This document shows, piece after piece, positions 4,156-46,916 of a stretch of 64,000 nt of DNA. The stretch is from Patescibacteria group bacterium (GTDB lineage: Bacteria > Patescibacteriota > Patescibacteriia > Patescibacteriales > UBA12465), in the NCBI GenBank assembly GCA_050949525.1, contig JBMNFW010000001.1:271890-335889 (forward strand), given 5' to 3'. The notes below the pieces were generated by a model. The model was given only the letters and a program-made list of their open reading frames with translations, had not been told where the DNA came from and ran no database searches. A program made the translations under genes and the position numbers. Positions within the stretch are counted from its first letter, which is position 1; each line of letters starts with the position of its first letter.

Positions 4156-5580
4156 ATGAATTTTAGTGATAAAAAAAATATATACATGATTGGTATTAAG
4201 GGAGTAGGAATGTCAATGTTAGCTCAATTTTTACAGGGGCATGGTTTTAATATTTCTGGATCGGATGTCGCTGAATTTTTTCCTAGTGATCGGACTTTAA
4301 CTCAAGCGAAGATTAAAGTTAAATCTGGTTTTTCGTTACAAGATTTTCCGAAAAAAATTGATTTGATTATTTATTCCTCAGCTTTTAATGAGGAGAATAA
4401 TATTGAAATGGAGTATTTTGCTAATCAGGATATTCCTAAACTTTCTTATGCTCAGGCTTTAGGTTTTTTACAGCAAGATTATTTTGGTATCTCAGTTTGT
4501 GGTAGTCATGGTAAAACCACCGTTACTGCTTGGTTGGGTTATGTTTTAGATCAAGCTGGATTATCACCTAATGTTTTAAGTGGTTCTTATGTTAAACAGT
4601 TTTCTGGTAGTTCATTGTCAGGGACATCAAAATATTTAATTTTAGAATCTGATGAATATCAGAATAAGTTAAAATATCTTCATCCTCAAGCTATCGTTTT
4701 GAATAATATTAGTTTTGATCATCCTGATTATTTCAAAAGTCCAGTTGATTATTTAAAAGTTTTTTCTGATTTTATTGCTCGGTTAGATAAATCTGGATTT
4801 TTGATTAATAATTTAGAGGATGAAAATTCGAGTCAAATTTTAAATCAAAGTCCAGCCCGAATTATATCTTATTATATTGATCAGCCAATTTTTAATTCTA
4901 AAGTTCAGTATGAAAAAATTTATCAAGCTCGTAATTGTCAAATTGGCCAAGATTATCAAAGTTTTGATCTTTTTCGGGGTGATGAATTTTTAACATCTTT
5001 TAAAATTTATCTTCCGGGTCGACATAATATTCTTAACGCTTTAGCGGTTATTAGTACAGCTCTAGAATTAGGTTTGGGGGTGGAAGAAATAAAGGGACCG
5101 TTATGGTCGTTTAAAGGTCCGGCTCGACGTTTTGATGTTTTGGGTACTTATCAGGGGGCTTTAATTATTGATGATTACGCTCATCATCCTCAAGAAATCC
5201 AGGCTTCTTTACAAGCTATTAAAGAAAGATATCCTGACAAAAGAATAGTATGTCTTTTTCATCCCCATACTTTTAGTCGAACCGAAGCTTTTTTAGATGA
5301 TTTTGCTCGAAGTTTTACTTTAAGTGATGTTTTATATTTAGTTGAAATTTATGCTTCAGCTCGAGAAAAAAAATCAGAACTTTCGAGTCTTGATTTAATT
5401 GATAAAATTAGGCAGTATAATGAGACTAGGGGACAAGAGCAGGAATTAGGATATTTTAAAGATTTAGATCAGGCGGAAAAAGAATTAGTTAAAAAAATTA
5501 CTAATAATGATTTAGTTTTATTATTAGGAGCTGGTGACGTTTTTCGTGTTGCCTATAATTGGTTAGATATAAAAATATGA
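4156..5580 (+). CDS. murC: UDP-N-acetylmuramate--L-alanine ligase MurC
   Basis: IGIKGVGMS N-terminal Rossmann motif, GSHGKTT P-loop and DDYAHHP motif of Mur ligases. Confidence 0.9.
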   Translation: MNFSDKKNIYMIGIKGVGMSMLAQFLQGHGFNISGSDVAEFFPSDRTLTQAKIKVKSGFSLQDFPKKIDLIIYSSAFNEENNIEMEYFANQDIPKLSYAQALGFLQQDYFGISVCGSHGKTTVTAWLGYVLDQAGLSPNVLSGSYVKQFSGSSLSGTSKYLILESDEYQNKLKYLHPQAIVLNNISFDHPDYFKSPVDYLKVFSDFIARLDKSGFLINNLEDENSSQILNQSPARIISYYIDQPIFNSKVQYEKIYQARNCQIGQDYQSFDLFRGDEFLTSFKIYLPGRHNILNALAVISTALELGLGVEEIKGPLWSFKGPARRFDVLGTYQGALIIDDYAHHPQEIQASLQAIKERYPDKRIVCLFHPHTFSRTEAFLDDFARSFTLSDVLYLVEIYASAREKKSELSSLDLIDKIRQYNETRGQEQELGYFKDLDQAEKELVKKITNNDLVLLLGAGDVFRVAYNWLDIKI

Positions 5581-6593
5581 AATATTTAGAAGGTGAAAAT
5601 TTAAGAGATTATACTACTTTTAAAATTGGGGGGCCAATTAAGTTTTTGGTTAAGGTTCAGGATAAATCAGAACTCTTTGAAGCTTTAGATAAGGCTGAGC
5701 AAGAAAAATGGCCATTATTAATATTAGGGTCGGGTTCTAATATTTTAGCTTCGGATCAAGGTTTTTCTGGTTTAGTTATTAAAAATGAGATCAAGGGATT
5801 AGAAATAATTTCCGAGAATGATTCTGAGGTGATAATTAGAGCTCAGAGTGGTGAAATTTGGTCCAAGTTAGTAAAATTTACAGTTGATAGGAATTTTTAT
5901 GGTCTAGAAAACACCTTTCATATTCCTGGAACAGTGGGAGCAGCTCCGATACAAAATATTGGAGCTTATGGAACTGAATTAAAGGATTGTTTAGTTTCTC
6001 TTAAGGCTATTAATTTAAAGACTAAAGAAGAGAAAGAGTTTTCAGCTTCAGATTGTGAGCTAGCTTATCGTGATAGTATTTTTAAAAATGAACTGAAGGG
6101 GCAGTATTTTATTCTATCACTTGATTTAAGATTAAAGAAAAATGGAAATTTAAATTTAAATTATCCTGATATTCAAAGAGTTTTAACTGAGAGAAAAATT
6201 ACCGAACCTAGCTTAAGTGATTTAATAGAGATTATTAGGGAAATTAGAGATGAGAAATTACCTAATCCGGGAGTTTTACCTAGTGCTGGATCTTTTTTTA
6301 AAAATCCTATTATATCTTCCGAGCTTCTGAGTAAATTGCAGGATAAATTTTCTGATTTAAGATATTTTGTTAACGGTGATGAGATTAAGATTCCAGCTGG
6401 CTGGATGATTGAAAAGTGTGGTTTTAAGGATCGTGATTTTGGTTCAGTGGGAGTTCATAAAAAACAAGCTTTGATTTTAGTCAATTATGGTGGAGCTAAA
6501 CAAAGTGATGTTCTAGCCTTAGCTCAAAAAATAAAAGAAGAGGTTAAGGATAGATTTAATATTAGTTTAGAAGAAGAAGTTAATATTATTTAA
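5577..6593 (+). CDS. murB: UDP-N-acetylenolpyruvoylglucosamine reductase MurB
   Basis: LRDYTTFKIGGP and GSGSNIL FAD-binding motifs, plus AGWMIEKCGFK. The ATG at 5577 overlaps the murC TGA (ATGA). The ORF track offers an earlier start at 5559. Confidence 0.9.
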   Translation: MKYLEGENLRDYTTFKIGGPIKFLVKVQDKSELFEALDKAEQEKWPLLILGSGSNILASDQGFSGLVIKNEIKGLEIISENDSEVIIRAQSGEIWSKLVKFTVDRNFYGLENTFHIPGTVGAAPIQNIGAYGTELKDCLVSLKAINLKTKEEKEFSASDCELAYRDSIFKNELKGQYFILSLDLRLKKNGNLNLNYPDIQRVLTERKITEPSLSDLIEIIREIRDEKLPNPGVLPSAGSFFKNPIISSELLSKLQDKFSDLRYFVNGDEIKIPAGWMIEKCGFKDRDFGSVGVHKKQALILVNYGGAKQSDVLALAQKIKEEVKDRFNISLEEEVNII

Positions 6594-9716: not shown

Positions 9717-9745
9717 TTGATAAAATAGGGTATAGATGTTATAGT
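9717..9745 (+). promoter_or_regulatory. Sigma-70-type promoter for the lipoprotein gene
   Basis: TTGATA, 17 nt, TATAGT. Confidence 0.5.
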
Positions 9746-11321: not shown

Positions 11322-11561
11322 ATGGATAAAGAAAATAATTCTAGCATTGATTCTAAAGACTTCTTAGAATTAAAGGGGGAGATAATAGAATTAATGCCGG
11401 CAGCTAATTTTAAGATAAAATTAGAAAATGGTCATGAAATATTAGGACATTTGTCTGGTAAAATGAGAATGAATCGAATTAGGCTTTTGCCAGGCGATAA
11501 GGTTAAAGTTCAAATGAGTCCTTATGATTTAAGTAAGGGTCGAATAGTTTTTCGTCTTTAA
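11322..11561 (+). CDS. infA: Translation initiation factor IF-1
   Basis: S1-like domain: [60 protein letters not shown]. An alternative GTG start lies at 11316. Confidence 0.93.
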
Positions 11562-17889: not shown

Positions 17890-17898
17890 ATTGTTATG

Positions 17899-18997
17899 AA
17901 TAAGTTCAGATACATTTTGGAAAATAAAAAGCCCAAAATGTATGCAGATAAAGTTTAAGTACTATAATTGTCCCGGATTTGGTACATTATATAATGATGC
18001 AATTAAGCAAAAATATATGATTACCAAAGAAGCTAGACAAAGACTCAAAATATTAGAATTTTGGAAGCAATATGGCCTTCAAGCCACTACTGATGCCTTT
18101 GGGGTTAAAAAATCTACCCTATACAATTGGCAAAAAATATTTAGAGAAGGGGGTGGCAAGATAGAAGCTCTCAATCCTAAATCCCAAGCTAGGATTAACA
18201 AGAATAAAAGAGAAATACATCCTCTGATATTAAAAGAGATTAGACGTTTAAGACTAGAGATTTGTCCTAATATGGATAAAACTAAAGTTAAAAAATTTTT
18301 AGATAAATTTTGTGAAATTAATAATTTACCAATATACTCAGAATCAAAGATAGGTAGAATTATTAAAGATAAAGATATATATCATCATAGACAGAAAATA
18401 TCTCATTTTGGTAAGATTAAAAAAATTAAAAAAACTAAAAAGAAAAGAAAACCTAAGGAATTACAAGTAAATAATCCTGGGGATTTAATAGAGATAGATA
18501 CTGTTGTTAGATTTCACAATGGATTAAAGAGATATATTATTACCGCTGTTGATACTTTTAGCCGAACAGCTTTCGCTTATGCCTATAACAGAATTAGTAG
18601 CTCTAATGCTAAAGATTTTTTTAAAAAATTAGAAGAAGTCATGCCCTTTAATATTAAGGCTGTTCAGACTGATAATGGTTTAGAATTCCATCTCTATTTT
18701 AAAAAATACTTAGAAGAGAGAAAAATTGAGCATTATTTCAATTATCCAGGTAGACCATACAAACAGGGTCATATTGAGAAGTTTAATAGGACTATTCAAG
18801 AAGAATTCATTGATTGGAGTGGTGAAAAATACTTTGATAATTTAGATGATTTTAATAATTTGTTAATTGATTGGCTTCTTTGGTATAATACCGATAGACC
18901 ACATTGGAGCCTTGAATTAGTATCTCCGATGAATTATTTGGTTAATAATAATTTTTTTTCCAAAATGACGTGGATTAATACATACGCTTGACTTATT
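17899..18997 (+). mobile_element. IS481-like insertion sequence (single-ORF HTH plus DDE/rve transposase); ends only weakly defined
   Basis: AATAAGT (17899-17905) and ACTTATT (18991-18997) are inverted. CATTTTGGAAAA at 17913-17924 also has a perfect inverted copy at about 18955-18966. I could not identify a clear target duplication. Confidence 0.6.
17942..18991 (+). CDS. Transposase, integrase-core (rve) DDE family
   Basis: HTH region KKSTLYNWQKIF. Catalytic residues lie in IEIDTV, QTDNGLEF and GHIEKFNRTIQEEF. The start may instead be the Met at 18017. Confidence 0.85.
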   Translation: MQIKFKYYNCPGFGTLYNDAIKQKYMITKEARQRLKILEFWKQYGLQATTDAFGVKKSTLYNWQKIFREGGGKIEALNPKSQARINKNKREIHPLILKEIRRLRLEICPNMDKTKVKKFLDKFCEINNLPIYSESKIGRIIKDKDIYHHRQKISHFGKIKKIKKTKKKRKPKELQVNNPGDLIEIDTVVRFHNGLKRYIITAVDTFSRTAFAYAYNRISSSNAKDFFKKLEEVMPFNIKAVQTDNGLEFHLYFKKYLEERKIEHYFNYPGRPYKQGHIEKFNRTIQEEFIDWSGEKYFDNLDDFNNLLIDWLLWYNTDRPHWSLELVSPMNYLVNNNFFSKMTWINTYA

Positions 18998-34455: not shown

Positions 34456-34809
34456 ATGAATATTAAGGAAAAAAATAATAAATTAGTTCGACGTCATAAA
34501 AGAATTAGATCTACTCTTAGTGGAACCGCTACTAGACCTCGTTTAAGCGTTTTTAGATCTAATCGAGGTATGTATGTTCAATTAATTGATGATGTTTCTG
34601 GTAAGACTTTAGTTAGTGCTAATAGTAAAGAGATTAAGGCTAAAAATCTTAAAAAGATTGATATGGCTTTAGCTTTAGGAAAACTTTTAGCGGAAAAAGC
34701 TACTAAGAATAAAATTACTCAAGTTGTTTTTGATCGTGGTGGTTATAAGTATCATGGACGAGTTAAGGCAGTGGCTGAAGGGGCTCGAGAAGGTGGTTTA
34801 ATTTTTTAA
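34456..34809 (+). CDS. rplR: 50S ribosomal protein L18
   Basis: [20 protein letters not shown]...[26 protein letters not shown]. Confidence 0.96.
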
Positions 34810-34833
34810 TTTAATATATAAATAATAAATAAT

Positions 34834-35439
34834 ATGTCAGAGCAAAAAAAAGATGAAATTAAAAAAGTAGCCTCAAGTTCTAAGGATGCTTCTGGAGCTA
34901 AACCTAAGAGATCTTTTTCTTCTCGAAAGCGTTTTGCTGATCGACCAAAAGAAGAATTTGAACAACGAATTTTAGATATTGCTCGAGTTACTCGAGTTAT
35001 GAAGGGAGGAAAGAGGATGAGTTTTAGAGCTTGTGTAGTTATTGGTGATAAGAAAGGACGAGTGGCTATTGCTTTAGGTAAAGGAGCTGATGTTACTATT
35101 GCAGTTAATAAGGCAGTCAATAAAGCTAAGAAGAATATCATAGTAGTTCCGATTGTAAAAGATACTATTCCTCATGAAATTTATCAAAAGTATGGTTCAG
35201 CTAAAATTTTATTAAAACCAGCTAATCAAGGACGGGGAGTTATTGCGGGTGGAGTAGTTCGAGTTATTATGGATTTGGCTGGGGTTAAAAATGTTACTAG
35301 TAAGATTTTAGGTACTAATAATAAAGTTAATAATGCTAAATGTGTAATGTTGGCTTTTAAAAATTTGAAAACTAAGAAGAGTCCTAAAACTAAGCCAGTT
35401 ACTAAGGAAAAGAAACTTGAAGTAAAAAATAAAAAATAA
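34834..35439 (+). CDS. rpsE: 30S ribosomal protein S5 (N- and C-terminal K-rich extensions)
   Basis: RVTRVMKGGKRMSFRACVVIGDKKGRVAIALGKG. Confidence 0.95.
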   Translation: MSEQKKDEIKKVASSSKDASGAKPKRSFSSRKRFADRPKEEFEQRILDIARVTRVMKGGKRMSFRACVVIGDKKGRVAIALGKGADVTIAVNKAVNKAKKNIIVVPIVKDTIPHEIYQKYGSAKILLKPANQGRGVIAGGVVRVIMDLAGVKNVTSKILGTNNKVNNAKCVMLAFKNLKTKKSPKTKPVTKEKKLEVKNKK

Positions 35440-35462
35440 TTTATAAATAAGAAAATAAAAAT

Positions 35463-35894
35463 ATGGCTATCTCGTTGCATAATATTAAAAGAAGTTCAGG
35501 AAGCTCTAGACCAGGAAAAAGATTAGGTCGAGGAGATTCTTCTGGTAAAGGAACTTATAGTGGCCGTGGTTTAAAGGGGCAAAAGTCTCGTTCTGGTGTT
35601 AGTCGAACTAAGCTTAAGAGATTAGGAATGAAAAGTGTTTTATTAAAAACTCCGAAAAGCCGAGGTTTTAAATCATTGTCACCTAAAAATCAAGTAGTGA
35701 GCGTTGTTAAAATTAATGAGAATTTTAAGGATAATGAAGTGGTGAATGCTGAAACTTTATTAGCTAAGAAGTTAATTAGAAACAAAAATTTACCAATTAA
35801 AATTTTAGGAAAAGAAGCCTTAATTCCTAAAGGTTTAAAATTTGAAAAGATATTATTTAGTCAAAGTGTTAAGGATCAGTTAGAGAAAAAATAA
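35463..35894 (+). CDS. rplO: 50S ribosomal protein L15
   Basis: GKRLGRGDSSGKGTYSGRGLKGQKSRSG. It follows rpsE directly, with no rpmD between them. Confidence 0.94.
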   Translation: MAISLHNIKRSSGSSRPGKRLGRGDSSGKGTYSGRGLKGQKSRSGVSRTKLKRLGMKSVLLKTPKSRGFKSLSPKNQVVSVVKINENFKDNEVVNAETLLAKKLIRNKNLPIKILGKEALIPKGLKFEKILFSQSVKDQLEKK

Positions 35895-35906
35895 TAATAA
35901 AGAATT

Positions 35907-37178
35907 ATGATTGAGAAAATAAAAAAAATTTGGAAAATTAGAGATTTAAGAAATAATATAATTTTTGTCCTATTGATGTTGGTTGTTTTTAGATTATTTG
36001 CTCATATTCCAGTTCCAGGAGTTAATGTGGCTGTGCTTAGAGAAATTTTTGCTTCCAATCAGATTTTAGGAATGTTAAATCTTTTTTCTGGTGGTAGTAT
36101 GAGTAATTTCTCTATTGTTATGATGGGTATCGGTCCTTATATTACTTCTTCTATTATCTTTCAGTTATTAGGTATGGTAGTACCAAAATTTGAAGAAATG
36201 CAAAAGGAAGAGGTGGGGCGACAGAAGATTAATTCTTGGACTCGTATCGCGACTGTTCCTTTAGCTATGATTCAAGCTTATGGTATGATTACCTTATTAC
36301 GAAAATCATCCGGTGCTATTTTTACTGATGTTTCTTCTTTTGATCTTTTTGTAACCATTATTACTGTTACCGCTGGAACCATATTTTTAATGTGGATTGG
36401 AGAATTGATTTCAGAAAAGAAAATTGGTAATGGTATTTCTTTGTTAATTTTTGCTGGTATTATTTCTTCTTTACCAACTACAGTACAAAATCTTTTTGTT
36501 ACATTTGATTTATCACAGATATATTTATTAATTGGATTTTTAATTATTGCTTTAATTACTATTATTGGAGTTGTTATTATTAATGAAGGGCAAAGAAAGA
36601 TTCCAGTCCAATATGCTCGTCAAATTAGAGGGAATAGAGCTTTTGGTGGTAATACCACTCATCTTCCTTTAAGGGTTAATACTGCTGGAGTTATCCCTAT
36701 TATCTTTGCTATTTCAGTTACTGTTTTTCCTTCAATGATAGCTCAGTTTTTTACTTCAGCTAAGTCCGCTTTTATTTCTAAGGCTGCTTTTTGGGTGATT
36801 AGATTATTTGAAAATCAATTATTCTATGGTATTTTCTATTTTATTCTAGTAGTTGCTTTTACTTATTTTTATACTGAGATCGTTTTTAAACCTGATCAGA
36901 TTTCTGAGAATTTACAAAAGCAAGGAGGTTTTATTCCTGGAATTAGGCCGGGGCGACACACTAGTGAATACCTCTCTTATATTAGTCGTCGTATTCTTTT
37001 GACTGGAGCTTTGTTTTTAGGTTTAATTGCTGTTTTACCTCTCATTATGAAATACTTTACTGGTATGCAATCTTTGGCTATTGGAGGAACCAGTCTCTTA
37101 ATCGTAGTTTCAGTAGTTATTGAAACGGTTAAACAAATTGAAGCTCAGATTAGTATGAGAGAGTACGATCAAATTTAA
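35907..37178 (+). CDS. secY: Preprotein translocase subunit SecY
   Basis: 423-aa, 10-TM-type protein with GIGPYITSSIIFQLL and GGTSLLIVVSV. Confidence 0.96.
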   Translation: MIEKIKKIWKIRDLRNNIIFVLLMLVVFRLFAHIPVPGVNVAVLREIFASNQILGMLNLFSGGSMSNFSIVMMGIGPYITSSIIFQLLGMVVPKFEEMQKEEVGRQKINSWTRIATVPLAMIQAYGMITLLRKSSGAIFTDVSSFDLFVTIITVTAGTIFLMWIGELISEKKIGNGISLLIFAGIISSLPTTVQNLFVTFDLSQIYLLIGFLIIALITIIGVVIINEGQRKIPVQYARQIRGNRAFGGNTTHLPLRVNTAGVIPIIFAISVTVFPSMIAQFFTSAKSAFISKAAFWVIRLFENQLFYGIFYFILVVAFTYFYTEIVFKPDQISENLQKQGGFIPGIRPGRHTSEYLSYISRRILLTGALFLGLIAVLPLIMKYFTGMQSLAIGGTSLLIVVSVVIETVKQIEAQISMREYDQI

Positions 37179-37198
37179 AATATAGTTAATATAGAATA

Positions 37199-37227
37199 AG
37201 AAAGAGCTATTTTAGCTCTTTTTTTAT
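37199..37227 (+). terminator. Intrinsic terminator after secY
   Basis: AAAGAGCTA-ttt-TAGCTCTTT followed by TTTTT. Confidence 0.85.
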
Positions 37228-37242
37228 TGGGTTTTATTGGGC

Positions 37243-37271
37243 TTGACTTTTTTAATATATTATGGTATACT
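37243..37271 (+). promoter_or_regulatory. Strong sigma-70 promoter with extended -10
   Basis: TTGACT, 17 nt (ending TGg), TATACT. Confidence 0.65.
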
Positions 37272-37277
37272 GAGTTT

Positions 37278-37425
37278 AGTTATTTAAAAATTTAAAATTA
37301 TGGTAGTATTATGCTTTTTAATGATCATTGTAGCGGGAGTAATTAGATCAAACTTCAGTCTAGGACACTTTGTTAGAAAGTAGTCCAGCTACAATTAAAG
37401 CCTTATTAGTTTAAGGCTTTTTTTA
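37278..37425 (+). ncRNA. Candidate ~150-nt independent transcript: either a structured small RNA or the mRNA of a 27-aa hydrophobic peptide
   Basis: Bounded by the promoter above and a terminator at 37397-37425. Long-range stem ATTGTAGC (37327-34)/GCTACAAT (37388-95) encloses hairpin GGACACTT-tgttaga-AAGTaGTCC. An ORF at 37300-37383 encodes MVVLCFLMIIVAGVIRSNFSLGHFVRK. Confidence 0.35.
37397..37425 (+). terminator. Intrinsic terminator of the small transcription unit
   Basis: AAAGCCTTA-ttagtt-TAAGGCTTT followed by TTTT. Confidence 0.8.
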
Positions 37426-37482
37426 TTAGTATTTTTTTTCTTTTATTGCTATAATAAAAGAGTTAGAATTAAGTTTTTTATT

Positions 37483-37770
37483 ATGTTTTCAAAAAAACTT
37501 CCTTCTGGTCGATCTGATTTTAGAATGTCAGGTTCTAGTGGTTTTAAGCGAAAGTTATCTAATTTAACTAGGTATGGTCAGTTTAATAATTTAAAAAACA
37601 ATCGCTCTCAAGCCATTAGTATTTTTAATGATTTAGCGCCATTAATTCGAAAAAATGGTAAATTATCTCTATCAGTTCGACAAAGAGCCGCTCGAAAATT
37701 TGCCTCTTTGCCTAATACTACTAGGCAAGATGAGCGAGATTTTAGGAAGATTTTAGATTATTACAAATAA
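37483..37770 (+). CDS. Small basic hypothetical protein (95 aa)
   Basis: The ORF starts 3 nt... it ends 2 nt before map and occupies the slot where adk usually sits. An upstream TGcTATAAT extended -10 lies at 37447-37455. No recognisable motif. Confidence 0.5.
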   Translation: MFSKKLPSGRSDFRMSGSSGFKRKLSNLTRYGQFNNLKNNRSQAISIFNDLAPLIRKNGKLSLSVRQRAARKFASLPNTTRQDERDFRKILDYYK

Positions 37771-37772
37771 TT

Positions 37773-38618
37773 ATGATTTATATTAAAAATCAAGCCGAAA
37801 TTGATATTATTTATCAAGGTGGTCAAATTTTAGCTAGAATTTTAGATAAATTAGGCCAAGAACTTAAGCCTGGAGCTTCAACAGCTCAAATAGAGGATTT
37901 GGCTCTTAGTTTAATAAAGGAAGCTGGTGGTCGACCAGCTTTTAAGGATTATAATATGGGGGGTGGGATATTTTTCCCCTCCGCTTTATGTGTTTCAATT
38001 AATAATGAAGTGGTTCATGGTTCTTCTTTGCCAGATAGGATTGTGCAGGAAGGGGATATAGTTAGTTTTGATATTGGTATGGAGTGGCCTTTACAAACGC
38101 CTGAGGAGGCTCAGAAAAATAATCGACCCTATAATAATCATTCTCTGGGTGGTGGATTCTATACTGATACTTGTCGGACTTTTGCGGTTGGAAAAATTAG
38201 TTCTTTAGCTGAAAAACTTTTAAAAGTTACTCAAACAGCTCTTAATTTAGGTATTTCACAGGCTGTAGCTGGTAAAACTTTAAACGATATTGGGAAAACC
38301 ATTGAAGATTATATTAAAAAGGAAGGTTTTAGTTCTGTCCGAGATTTAGTTGGTCATGGAGTTGGGTATTTAGCTCATGAAGATCCTTATGTTTTTCATT
38401 ATGAAATTGGTGATAATTCTCCTAGTAATATTATTTTAAAGCCAGGAATGGTGATAGCAATTGAACCGATGATTAATGTTGGTAAATCTAGAGTTAAAAT
38501 GGCTAGTAATGGTTATACTGTCTTAACGGCTGATAACTCTCTTAGTGCTCATTTTGAACATTCAGTGGCTATTTTAGAACCAGGGAAGGGTAATTTAATC
38601 TTAACTAAGTTAAAATGA
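37773..38618 (+). CDS. map: Methionine aminopeptidase, type I
   Basis: NEVVHG, DIVSFDIG, GHGVG, IEPM and FEHSV metal-ligand motifs. Confidence 0.93.
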   Translation: MIYIKNQAEIDIIYQGGQILARILDKLGQELKPGASTAQIEDLALSLIKEAGGRPAFKDYNMGGGIFFPSALCVSINNEVVHGSSLPDRIVQEGDIVSFDIGMEWPLQTPEEAQKNNRPYNNHSLGGGFYTDTCRTFAVGKISSLAEKLLKVTQTALNLGISQAVAGKTLNDIGKTIEDYIKKEGFSSVRDLVGHGVGYLAHEDPYVFHYEIGDNSPSNIILKPGMVIAIEPMINVGKSRVKMASNGYTVLTADNSLSAHFEHSVAILEPGKGNLILTKLK

Positions 38619-38992
38619 TTAAAAAATATTTAGGTTTAGATTGGGGGGAGAAAAGAATTGGATTGTCGATAGCTGATAGTGAGAATAGGGTGGCCTTACC
38701 TCTTAAAACCATTAATAATTTTCAAGAACTTTTAGAAGTGGTTAAAGAAGAGGGAATTGATTTCTTGGTGATTGGCCAGCCTAAAAAAATGTCAGGTGAT
38801 GAAGCTAATCAGCCACTTTTTTTAAAGTTTTTAGATTTAATTAGGAAAAATAATTTTTCTTTCTTTTTAATAGATGAGAGATTGTCTAGTGTTCAGGCTG
38901 ATAGTCTTCGAGTTAAAGAGTTTAAATTTGACCGCGATGCTTTATCAGCGATGATAATACTTCAATCTTATTTAGATAAAACTTATGATTAA
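38615..38992 (+). CDS. ruvX: YqgF/RuvX-family putative pre-16S rRNA nuclease / Holliday junction resolvase-like protein
   Basis: YLGLDWGEKRIGLSIADS N-terminus and DERLSSVQA. Confidence 0.85.
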   Translation: MIKKYLGLDWGEKRIGLSIADSENRVALPLKTINNFQELLEVVKEEGIDFLVIGQPKKMSGDEANQPLFLKFLDLIRKNNFSFFLIDERLSSVQADSLRVKEFKFDRDALSAMIILQSYLDKTYD

Positions 38993-39683
38993 AACTAAAG
39001 CTATAGTTTTAAATCGTAAACCTTATCGTGATTATGATGCTCTGGTTTCTTTTTATACCTTAGATCAGGGTTATTTAGTTTTATTAGCTCGAGGTTTACA
39101 AAAAGAAAAGTCTAAATTAGCTGGTCATTTAGAACCTTTTAATTTAGTTGATTTAATGATTATTAAAGGACGAGAAAGATATTATATTGGTAGTGCTATT
39201 TCAGAAAACTCTTTTTTAAATATTAAATCTGATTATCAACGAATATGGTTAGCTGGTGAGGCGATTAATTTTGTTCAAAGTTTAAGTTTTCCGGAGCAGG
39301 TTGATTATAATATTTTTTTAACTCTTAGAGATTTTCTTTTAAGTTTAGATTTTAGTTCGGATAGTGCTAAAGAGCTATTATTATTTTTTAAACTTAAGGT
39401 TCTAGAGATTTTGGGTTATGGTTTAGGCTCTAGTTCTTGTTCTTTTTGTCACTCTAAAGATGATTTAATTTTTAATTTTTTTGATAAAGAATTTATTTGC
39501 CGAAATTGTGCTCAGGGTCAGGGGTTATCTAATGAGTATTTATTTAAAATTAGTCGTAAGTCTTTAAATTTAAGAGATAATATTATTAATTCAGAATTTC
39601 TAGCTTTACAAAAATTAAGTCTAGAATCTAATGAATATCAAGATTTAGAAACTTTAGTTAATCTTTTTAAACGAATAATTTAG
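38985..39683 (+). CDS. recO: DNA repair protein RecO
   Basis: The OB-fold N-terminus AIVLNRKPYRDYDALVSFYT and the CSFCHS...CRNC zinc motif are typical of RecO. Confidence 0.8.
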   Translation: MIKTKAIVLNRKPYRDYDALVSFYTLDQGYLVLLARGLQKEKSKLAGHLEPFNLVDLMIIKGRERYYIGSAISENSFLNIKSDYQRIWLAGEAINFVQSLSFPEQVDYNIFLTLRDFLLSLDFSSDSAKELLLFFKLKVLEILGYGLGSSSCSFCHSKDDLIFNFFDKEFICRNCAQGQGLSNEYLFKISRKSLNLRDNIINSEFLALQKLSLESNEYQDLETLVNLFKRII

Positions 39684-39729
39684 TTGATTGATTTATCGCT
39701 TAAAATGAGTTAAAATCTAAGAGTTAGAT

Positions 39730-40470
39730 ATGATGGAGGTAAAAATAGATAACTTTCAAGGGCCTTTGTCGCTCTTGCTTCAAATAATTGAAAAAGAGGA
39801 ATTAGATATTAATTCAATTAGTTTAGCTAAGATTGCTGATGAGTATTTGGAGTATGTAAAAAATTCACCTGATATTTTACCGGAATCAATGGCTGATTTT
39901 TTATTATTAGCTGCTCGACTTTTATATATTAAATCTAAATCTTTATTACCTTTTTTATTTAGTGAAGAAGATGAAGCTGAAATTCAGAATCTAGAAGAGA
40001 AGTTGAGGTTGTATAAAGATTTTGTTGATTTAAGTGCTAAAGTTCAAAAGATCATTGGTCGAAAAAAGTTTTTCTTTTTTCGTGATAATTTAAAAACTAA
40101 GCGTCATTGGTCTTTAATGGAGGATACTTTTATATCGCCTCAGAATTTAAGGTTGGAGGAATTGAGCTCTGAATTTCAGAAAATATTGAATCGAATTGAG
40201 GTGTTGGAGGAATCTTTGGGTCGAGATGTTATAATGGAAGAGATCAGTATTGAAGAACGGATTGTTTTTATTCGTCAAGCTATTGTTAGTAAGGTTAGAA
40301 TTAGTTTTACTAAAATATTACGCGAGTCTAAGTCTAAAACTGAAGTTATTGTTAATTTTTTAGCTGTTTTAGAATTAGCTAAGCAAAAAGAAATTGTTTT
40401 TAATCAAGATGGATTATTTGGTGAAATTTTTGTTGAAACTTACAAAAGTTTAGAAGAAAATTTAAATTAA
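39730..40470 (+). CDS. scpA: Segregation and condensation protein A
   Basis: NFQGPLSLLLQIIEKEELDINSISLAKIADEYLEY. Confidence 0.85.
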   Translation: MMEVKIDNFQGPLSLLLQIIEKEELDINSISLAKIADEYLEYVKNSPDILPESMADFLLLAARLLYIKSKSLLPFLFSEEDEAEIQNLEEKLRLYKDFVDLSAKVQKIIGRKKFFFFRDNLKTKRHWSLMEDTFISPQNLRLEELSSEFQKILNRIEVLEESLGRDVIMEEISIEERIVFIRQAIVSKVRISFTKILRESKSKTEVIVNFLAVLELAKQKEIVFNQDGLFGEIFVETYKSLEENLN

Positions 40471-40474
40471 ATAT

Positions 40475-41014
40475 ATGGAATTAAAGTATATTATTGAATC
40501 ATTATTCTTTGTTAGTCCTAAACCTTTAACTATTAAGGAGATTGCTTCTTTTTTGGATAAAGAAAAATCAGAGGTGGAGCAGGCTTTAGAGCTTTTAAGT
40601 TCTGAATATGAATCATCTAAGCGAGGTATTAGGATAATTGAGAGTAATAAGAAGTATCAGATGGCTAGTGCTCCGGATAATGCTAAGTTGGTTCAGAAGT
40701 TTTTACAAACTGAAGTTAGTGGGGAATTAAGTCCAGCTAGTTTAGAAACTCTAACTATTATTGCTTATCGTGGACCGATTAAAAAGAAAGATTTAGAGAA
40801 AATTAGGGGTATAAATTGTAGCTTAATTTTACGGAATCTTTTAATCCGAGGTTTAGTAGAGGAGAAAGATGCTCCAGAAGCGGAGGATCGAGAATATTCG
40901 GTTAGTTTAGAGTTTATGAAATTTTTAGGTCTTAGCACTCTAAAAGATTTGCCTGATTATGAAAAATTTAATCAGAATGAGCAGATTGATAAATTATTAA
41001 GTGAGAATGAGTAG
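40475..41014 (+). CDS. scpB: Segregation and condensation protein B
   Basis: IESLFFVSPKPLTIKEIA and LSPASLETLTIIAYRGPI; follows scpA. Confidence 0.85.
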   Translation: MELKYIIESLFFVSPKPLTIKEIASFLDKEKSEVEQALELLSSEYESSKRGIRIIESNKKYQMASAPDNAKLVQKFLQTEVSGELSPASLETLTIIAYRGPIKKKDLEKIRGINCSLILRNLLIRGLVEEKDAPEAEDREYSVSLEFMKFLGLSTLKDLPDYEKFNQNEQIDKLLSENE

Positions 41015-45548: not shown

Positions 45549-45620
45549 TCTCGGGTGGCGCAGCGGTAGCGCAGTTGGCTGTTAACCAATTGGTCGTCGG
45601 TTCGAATCCGACCCCGAGAG
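45549..45620 (+). tRNA. tRNA-Asn (anticodon GTT), no encoded CCA
   Basis: Hand-folded cloverleaf. Acceptor TCTCGGG/CCCGAGA. D arm GCGC-AGCGGTA-GCGC. Anticodon arm GTTGG-CTGTTAA-CCAAT. Variable loop TGGTC. T arm GTCGG-TTCGAAT-CCGAC. Discriminator G. 72 nt. Confidence 0.9.
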
Positions 45621-46842: not shown

Positions 46843-46916
46843 CCATATCTTGACATTTTTTATCTTTTATGATATAATCCCTAGTTGTCTAAAAATTAAA
46901 AAATAATTTTAAACAT

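Follow-up and report, generated by a model that had tools for sequence, protein, structure and literature searches.

A species-restricted promoter, small-ORF and terminator cassette downstream of secY in a Falkowbacteria genome: a possible young membrane-peptide gene

The window analysed here is a stretch of 64,000 nt (64 kb) from the genome assembly of a Patescibacteria group bacterium, and all coordinates refer to it unless stated otherwise. Judged by its SecY relatives, the source is a Candidatus Falkowbacteria-like member of the Patescibacteria, with a G+C content of ~31%. The host genome is compact (87% coding, median intergenic gap 35 nt). The locus opens with the secY gene (35907-37178), the upstream neighbour of the unit described below, and with the secY intrinsic terminator (37198-37224, plus strand), a bidirectional element made of a 12-bp stem and a T run, with an ortholog in the closest outgroup locus (L179) and in other relatives. 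On the 3' side of the unit, the genes are arranged as follows: a conserved hypothetical gene of 95 aa (37483-37770), map, ruvX, recO, scpA and scpB. The gap between secY and the 95-aa gene measures 304 nt in the window versus 89-139 nt in the closest species-level relatives (SecY 79-89% identical), where it contains only a terminator and a promoter. An original prediction, made from the letters of the DNA, had described an orphan transcription unit in this gap, a position at which no public contig calls a gene. The promoter, stem, bulged hairpin, terminator and ORF that it listed were all recovered at their predicted coordinates and, by its sequence, the unit is autonomous from promoter to terminator.

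The unit starts with a sigma-70-type extended -10 promoter (37243-37271, plus strand), composed of the TTGACT hexamer (37243-37248), a 17-nt spacer containing the TG dinucleotide (37263-64) and the TATACT hexamer (37266-37271), the downstream part reading TGgTATACT. This was the sole 10/12 match obtained when 4 kb were scanned on both strands. In the 64-kb window, 13 strong extended -10 promoters were counted, including that of the unit, versus 3.2 expected from shuffles; on the gene strand, most of them precede the tRNA at 45549 or a long ORF, whose first ATG then lies 27-38 nt further on. In the unit, 28 nt separate the -10 from the ATG at 37300, which is the first ATG downstream, and this distance falls within the 27-38 nt range of the real genes. 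Transcription would start at ~37278, and the predicted 5' leader (37278-37299, plus strand) is ~22 nt long, A/U-rich, unstructured and devoid of a Shine-Dalgarno motif. About 125 nt of sequence follow the -10 before the 9-bp stem of the unit's own intrinsic terminator (37397-37424, plus strand), whose arms (AAAGCCTTA/TAAGGCTTT, 37397-37420) enclose a 6-nt loop and are followed by 7 T, the T run reaching 37424. The unit has its own promoter and an intrinsic terminator around a predicted RNA of ~147 nt, the layout of a trans-acting sRNA gene (50-300 nt), with expression predicted from the sequence. Taken together, the feature is a real, species-restricted and autonomous cassette of promoter, small ORF with structured RNA, and terminator.

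Across the window, strong extended -10 promoters were seen only 27-38 nt upstream of starts (examples at 9717, 10494, 24361 and 46850), and a (T/G)AGT motif often follows the -10 by a few bases. Such promoter-start spacing implies that leaders would be very short and A/U-rich, and that translation would initiate without Shine-Dalgarno pairing.

For the definition of the insertion boundaries, the window was compared with L179. The whole cassette is a species-specific insertion of 199 nt (37229-37427, plus strand): in L179, the T run of the secY terminator passes straight into ATTAGCCTTTTTTTTCTTTTATTGATATAAT, the ortholog of window positions 37425-37455, and the 95-aa protein that follows is 82% identical to that of the window. 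According to the same comparison, the insertion is bordered by an 11-nt direct repeat, CTTTTTTTATT, with a left copy at 37218-37228 and a right copy at 37417-37427, and the insertion ends are ambiguous within 11 nt owing to this repeat. The left copy corresponds to the T run of the secY terminator plus the next ATT. A tandem duplication of TTTTATTGGG (two copies, 37222-37241, plus strand) occupies the left insertion edge, just 5' of the -35 hexamer. Outside the insertion lie the ancestral promoter (TGcTATAAT, -10 at 37450-37455) and the leader of the 95-aa gene (37430-37482, plus strand), which could be aligned to the intergenic regions of L179 and L002 (p<0.002 and p=0.024, respectively).

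The unit was not found by blastn in 160 related secY loci (L001-L160) from genome and metagenome collections, nor in L179; beyond the species, it fails the conservation check by which the original prediction could be refuted. It had also been remarked that the unit occupies the usual place of adk. The relatives without the unit have no adk at this position either, and adk was not detectable in the 64-kb window by tblastn with the E. coli Adk; since these relatives pass from secY straight to the 95-aa gene, the argument from the adk position is irrelevant in this lineage. The infA gene (11355-11555) was located ~26 kb upstream of secY and not after map, which makes the tail of the ribosomal-protein/secY operon non-canonical in this lineage.

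The source of the inserted DNA was sought in several collections. Searched against the window itself (blastn), the unit displayed generic promoter similarity only, for instance with 46849-46905. The unit DNA had no match in phage and plasmid collections, an exact 28-mer and a back-translated peptide pattern were absent from the viral contigs searched, and tblastn of the peptide against the window and the loci revealed no paralogs. When a covariance model of the three-way junction described below was run on ~980 kb (the window plus the related loci), the unit alone was matched and no second copy was obtained. The ends carry no terminal inverted repeats, no extra copies were found in the window or the loci and the unit has no similarity to the IS481-like element of the window, which sets it apart from MITEs and IS-derived miniature elements; the flanking 11-nt direct repeat is all that was seen at the insertion ends. 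Judged by these comparisons, the unit is a young insertion that belongs to no known family.

Several candidate origins were tried and rejected. For a relic of a Na+/Ca2+ exchanger gene, peptide and DNA comparisons with six exchanger N-termini were not significant. A duplication of the region of the 95-aa gene was suggested by two short colinear matches, but 3.6% of arbitrary window segments score as high or higher. The part of the unit made up of ORF and terminator was compared with the 5' ends of other promoter-proximal genes of the window, and no significant similarity resulted. The IS481-like element of the window (17897-18982) has no similarity to the unit and was discarded as the insertion source. 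Finally, the coincidence of an element junction with the unit in L169 corresponds to an independent IS insertion, 2 nt downstream, with a 5-bp ATTAG duplication.

This IS481-like insertion sequence is 1086 bp long, with TG...CA ends and imperfect terminal inverted repeats, and encodes a transposase of 349 aa (17942-18991) with HTH and rve domains. It is polymorphic in the population (left junction in L183-L185, right junction in L169) and, by these junctions, appears to be active. In several samples, a copy is inserted between 37429 and 37430, 2 nt after the unit, with the ATTAG target duplication, and disrupts neither the unit nor the 95-aa gene promoter.

The small ORF of the unit (37300-37383, plus strand) has 27 codons and encodes MVVLCFLMIIVAGVIRSNFSLGHFVRK; it is open in both of the alleles found in the species, and the second allele, of 28 codons, encodes MVSVLCFLIIVVAGVIRSNFTLGHFIRK (loci L162, L164 and L165). 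The peptide is built of a hydrophobic N-terminus of 15-16 residues and a basic tail, RSNF[S/T]LGHF[V/I]RK. The hydrophobic stretch is short for a transmembrane span, which speaks against a peptide gene. As noted in the original prediction, no Shine-Dalgarno motif precedes the ORF and few are present elsewhere: such motifs are rare genome-wide, with 2/60 genes versus 20% of random positions. Real gene starts have G/C-poor leaders (87% A+T). Compared with true gene starts, the ATG at 37300 has a start context at the 62nd percentile; compared with other ATGs, it ranks in the top 2-4%. The local folding energy at this ATG (-2.0 kcal/mol) equals the gene mean. The chance of a first ATG opening at least 27 codons was estimated from base composition alone as ~9-11%.

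The codon usage of the ORF points in the other direction. Its synonymous-codon score (-0.33) lies in the bottom 0.6% of 1835 27-codon windows of real genes and in the bottom 1.3% of the hydrophobic ones, and is typical for chance small ORFs. The rare codons are GTA (four times), TGC, ATC, GCG, AAC, TTC, CTA and CAC, many of which are located in RNA stems. This codon usage argues against an established protein gene. The combination of a good start context with non-coding-like codons fits a young, unadapted gene, and also an sRNA with an incidental ORF. No Pfam or NCBIfam family was detected for either peptide allele at E-values up to 10.

For the comparison of strains, 35 same-species loci were recovered by exact-protein look-ups from many samples. 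The unit is present in all of the 34 loci that span the site, and in the window. Two real alleles were distinguished: haplotype 1 in 26 loci and the window (including a variant with one T fewer) and haplotype 2 in 6 loci, with two sub-variants. All comparative tests rest on these two alleles, which makes each of them weak. Relative to haplotype 1, the haplotype 2 ORF is longer by one codon (TCA) and differs by three synonymous changes (TGC>TGT, TTT>TTC and ATC>ATT) and four conservative replacements (M8I, I10V, S20T and V25I); the stop codon is unchanged and the ORF remains open. The sole cassette indel located inside the ORF has 3 nt and is in frame, and the other two, of 1 nt each, fall outside it. 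Between the window and the most distant strain, the background divergence was pS 0.058 and pN 0.0039, with a pS range of 0.013-0.092 for the flanking genes. Between the alleles, 3/18 synonymous and 4/66 non-synonymous sites of the ORF differ (pN/pS ~0.36); at ~8%, the overall divergence of the ORF comes close to that of neutral sites (pS 0.058), so that these counts do not demonstrate purifying selection acting on the peptide.

Some backgrounds carry the haplotype 2 cassette although their secY, 95-aa gene and map do not differ from those of the window, which indicates short-tract recombination around the unit. Across 34500-40800 (compared with L161-L168), the strains of the species are mosaics: blocks with ~2% divergence, for example in recO or scpA, are interspersed with stretches that do not differ at all. 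Around the haplotype 2 cassette, the flanks are otherwise of haplotype 1, and the breakpoints fall between 37060 and 37638. At the sequence level, these mosaics indicate that short-tract homologous recombination would be frequent.

The predicted RNA fold of the unit is a three-way junction of 69 nt (37327-37395, plus strand, -19.4 kcal/mol) with three helices: P1, 8 bp, pairing ATTGTAGC (37327-37334) with GCTACAAT (37388-37395); P2, 5 bp, pairing GGAGU (37336-40) with ACUUC (37352-56); and P3, a bulged hairpin (37363-71 paired with 37377-86) that contains the stop codon of the ORF. The 8-bp stem and the bulged hairpin agree with the original prediction. According to the folding model, the 28-nt stretch that it took as unpaired probably contains the P2 helix, which turns the structure into a three-way junction. 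A 13-nt stretch made of the P2 3' side and the adjacent junction (37350-37362, AAACTTCAGTCTA) shows 85% complementarity to the 95-aa gene leader (37464-37476), just before the start of that gene. This complementarity is a lead only for a possible sRNA target, chance matches being common in such A/T-rich DNA (33 inverted pairs per 500 nt).

Weighing this evidence, we tentatively prefer to read the unit as a young, translated small membrane-peptide gene, with confidence somewhat short of even. This reading builds on the insertion and its boundaries, the quality and invariance of the promoter and terminator, an ORF that is kept open, its start context and a fold compatible with both alleles, all of which were obtained by analysis; transcription, translation, membrane location and any cellular role of the unit are what we infer for it. 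The proposed course of events is as follows. The ancestor of this single Falkowbacteria species would have received a 199-nt insertion just 3' of its secY terminator. The promoter, extended -10 and of the native type, would drive the synthesis of an RNA of ~147 nt ending at the unit's own intrinsic terminator. In this RNA, the AUG at transcript position +23 would be the first AUG in a short, unstructured, A/U-rich leader and, since the host genome uses Shine-Dalgarno-free initiation at the first AUG, it would be translated. The product would be a peptide of 27-28 residues, with a hydrophobic N-terminal helix of 15-16 residues and a basic tail, most likely located in the cytoplasmic membrane. 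The three-way junction would extend over the downstream half of the ORF, stop codon included, and probably acts together with the terminator to make the transcript more stable or to modulate its translation.

Counted in favour of this reading were the rarity of the promoter, the 28-nt spacing, the start context, the in-frame indel and the invariance of the promoter and terminator, as well as the presence of the cassette in all the spanning same-species loci of a compact genome, in strains that differ by a pS of 0.058. Counted against it were the codon usage, the near-neutral divergence and the lack of any homolog, family or paralog in the searches described above. Small hydrophobic membrane proteins of less than 50 aa are produced from stand-alone mini-genes, for example KdpF, MgtS and AcrZ. 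The unit shares with these a peptide of 27-28 aa with one hydrophobic helix and a basic tail, a promoter and a terminator of its own, and the fact that it was missed by gene callers. Unlike them, it has no family relationship, is restricted to one species, displays non-coding-like codons and is not adjacent to a plausible partner gene.

If expressed, the unit would add an unannotated small gene to a Patescibacteria genome and would provide a dated example of a complete promoter-ORF-terminator unit arising in a very compact genome. It would also be a convenient test case for first-AUG translation without Shine-Dalgarno pairing in this group. Such orphan small ORFs and sRNAs are common in bacteria, and the unit has no bearing on a long-standing open question.

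The original prediction had left a choice between a structured small RNA and a small membrane peptide, and these remain the right pair of alternatives. The first of them, a non-coding sRNA of ~147 nt composed of an unstructured A/U-rich 5' region, the 69-nt three-way junction and the intrinsic terminator, with the ORF being incidental, is in our judgement somewhat unlikely. The stable core (-19.4 kcal/mol, z = -2.9 to -4.0) is predicted in all three haplotypes, but its coordinates were picked after the stem had been seen, and the z of the whole transcript (-2.7 to -3.2) falls to only -1.6 when the terminator is left out. All of the 31 base pairs are kept in the three haplotypes and the sole two changes at paired positions are one-sided wobble changes (A-U to G-U and U-A to U-G); by our own count, 2/62 paired versus ~10/89 unpaired alignment columns vary, but no compensatory double-sided change was found. 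The ORF codons cannot be distinguished from non-coding sequence, and the rare G/C-rich codons sit in the stems, both of which suit an untranslated RNA. Ribosome loading would nevertheless be expected on a first AUG in a good initiation context, and the sole indel inside the ORF is in frame. It had been suggested that covariation should be scored against codon-like conservation: the allele comparison was run, and coding and structural constraints could not be separated by it. The allele data are compatible with the coding and structural readings alike, and prove neither.

The search for known RNA families is also relevant to the sRNA. When the whole window was scanned with Rfam 15 at gathering thresholds, the tRNA at 45549 was the only match and the unit was left unmatched, in line with the initial impression that it belongs to no known RNA family; likewise, the covariance model gave no second copy in the ~980 kb. 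Terminator-ended RNAs that are trans-acting or have dual functions include SgrS/SgrT, RNAIII and SR1. Like these, the unit would produce an RNA of ~150 nt whose 5' region is unstructured and whose body is structured, with an intrinsic terminator at its end, and includes a short ORF, as do the dual-function sRNAs. Unlike these, it is not conserved beyond the species, displays no covariation among its three haplotypes and has no Rfam family.

Alternatively, the unit may be a functionless recent insertion or proto-gene with a working promoter and terminator by chance, perhaps transcribed and translated, and neutral; this we consider unlikely. The restriction of the unit to one species, its absence from the closest outgroup, the non-coding-like codon usage of the ORF and the lack of homologs among the collections searched would all be in keeping with it. 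The interior divergence (~8%, plus indels) is also about the synonymous rate of the flanking genes (pS 0.058, 0.013-0.092), and the site tolerates insertions, as seen in the strains with an IS element 2 nt downstream. The edges of the cassette behave differently from its interior: no haplotype departs from the others in the promoter hexamers, the spacer or the terminator, and the 57 nt of the promoter (29 nt) and terminator (28 nt) have 0 inter-allele differences, whereas the interior or synonymous rate would predict ~3-5. This invariance suggests, as far as sequence comparison can tell, that expression is being maintained. A neutral insertion is also at odds with the fact that all the strains sampled have kept the cassette in a highly compact genome, and with the preservation of the open ORF, its in-frame indel and all the stems.

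A more elaborate account of the membrane-peptide gene was also considered. In this account, the unit would be a newborn gene, arisen de novo or from unrecognisable DNA in one species of a Patescibacteria lineage with ultra-small genomes, and fixed as two alleles of deep divergence, which would be exchanged between strain backgrounds through short-tract recombination; it would act as a dual-function RNA plus membrane peptide, or encode a toxin-like peptide without antitoxin. We regard this version as improbable.

Type I toxin-antitoxin modules encode toxins of several classes (Fst/Ldr, Ibs, TisB and Hok), and the original prediction had pointed out the resemblance of the peptide to such toxins. 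By analogy, the unit could be a module of this type, in which a membrane-damaging peptide would be kept in check by 5'-3' pairing of its mRNA and by an antisense RNA. The size and shape of the peptide fit: the unit ORF (27/28 aa) is within the limit for a hydrophobic toxin ORF (<60 aa), and a hydrophobic helix is followed by a charged, basic C-terminal tail. Further points of likeness are the stand-alone intergenic position, the structured mRNA with long-range pairing and the stop codon buried in a stem, and the minimum-free-energy fold of haplotype 1 pairs the 5' part of the ORF with its 3' part; for haplotype 2, however, a fold without this 5'-3' pairing is predicted. Unlike type I modules, the unit has no detected antisense or overlapping sRNA gene: no minus-strand promoter reading into 37278-37425 was found in a consensus scan, which does not amount to proof of absence, and the sole nearby minus-strand promoter-like site (37288 to 37259, 9/12) points away from the unit. 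The peptide matches no toxin family in Pfam or NCBIfam, has no paralogs and is single-copy in the window. The resemblance did not extend beyond the size and shape of the peptide, and a type I module is a very unlikely identity for the unit.

The order of promoter, short ORF with structure, terminator and genes is also that of a cis-regulatory leader. A sensitive Rfam scan of 37150-37500 gave as best matches RF01859 Phe_leader (27.4 bits, E 0.012, versus a cutoff of 55) and rimP (25.5 bits versus 47). Phe_leader resembles the unit in its general arrangement, which combines a short ORF with nested stems and a terminator, but the sub-threshold match was largely driven by the unit terminator, and the unit differs by lacking runs of Phe codons and by having downstream genes with their own promoter; it is not a member of this family. 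By inspection, no regulatory codon run was seen in the ORF, and no upstream complement to the terminator arm that could form an antiterminator. The extended -10 promoter that the 95-aa gene keeps between the unit terminator and its own start is ancestral, being orthologous to the promoters of L179 and L002. A leader-peptide attenuator or riboswitch controlling read-through into the 95-aa gene, map, ruvX and recO is hardly credible, given that the relatives regulate the same genes without the unit, that the 95-aa gene retains its promoter downstream of the unit terminator, and that in some strains an IS element parts the unit from these genes.

Other features of the secY-map interval vary among the relatives. 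The 95-aa protein is basic, starts with MFSKKLPSGRSDFRMSGSSGF, and has no Pfam or NCBIfam family; it directly follows secY in the closest Falkowbacteria relatives, with 59-82% identity among database matches. In L013, L034 and L083, an extra gene of ~100 aa precedes the 95-aa gene, just after secY. In several relatives (L003-L009, ~4650-5750 in locus coordinates), the 95-aa gene and map are separated by a Na+/Ca2+ exchanger gene (PF01699), and in L005 such a gene is found directly 3' of secY (4390-5460).
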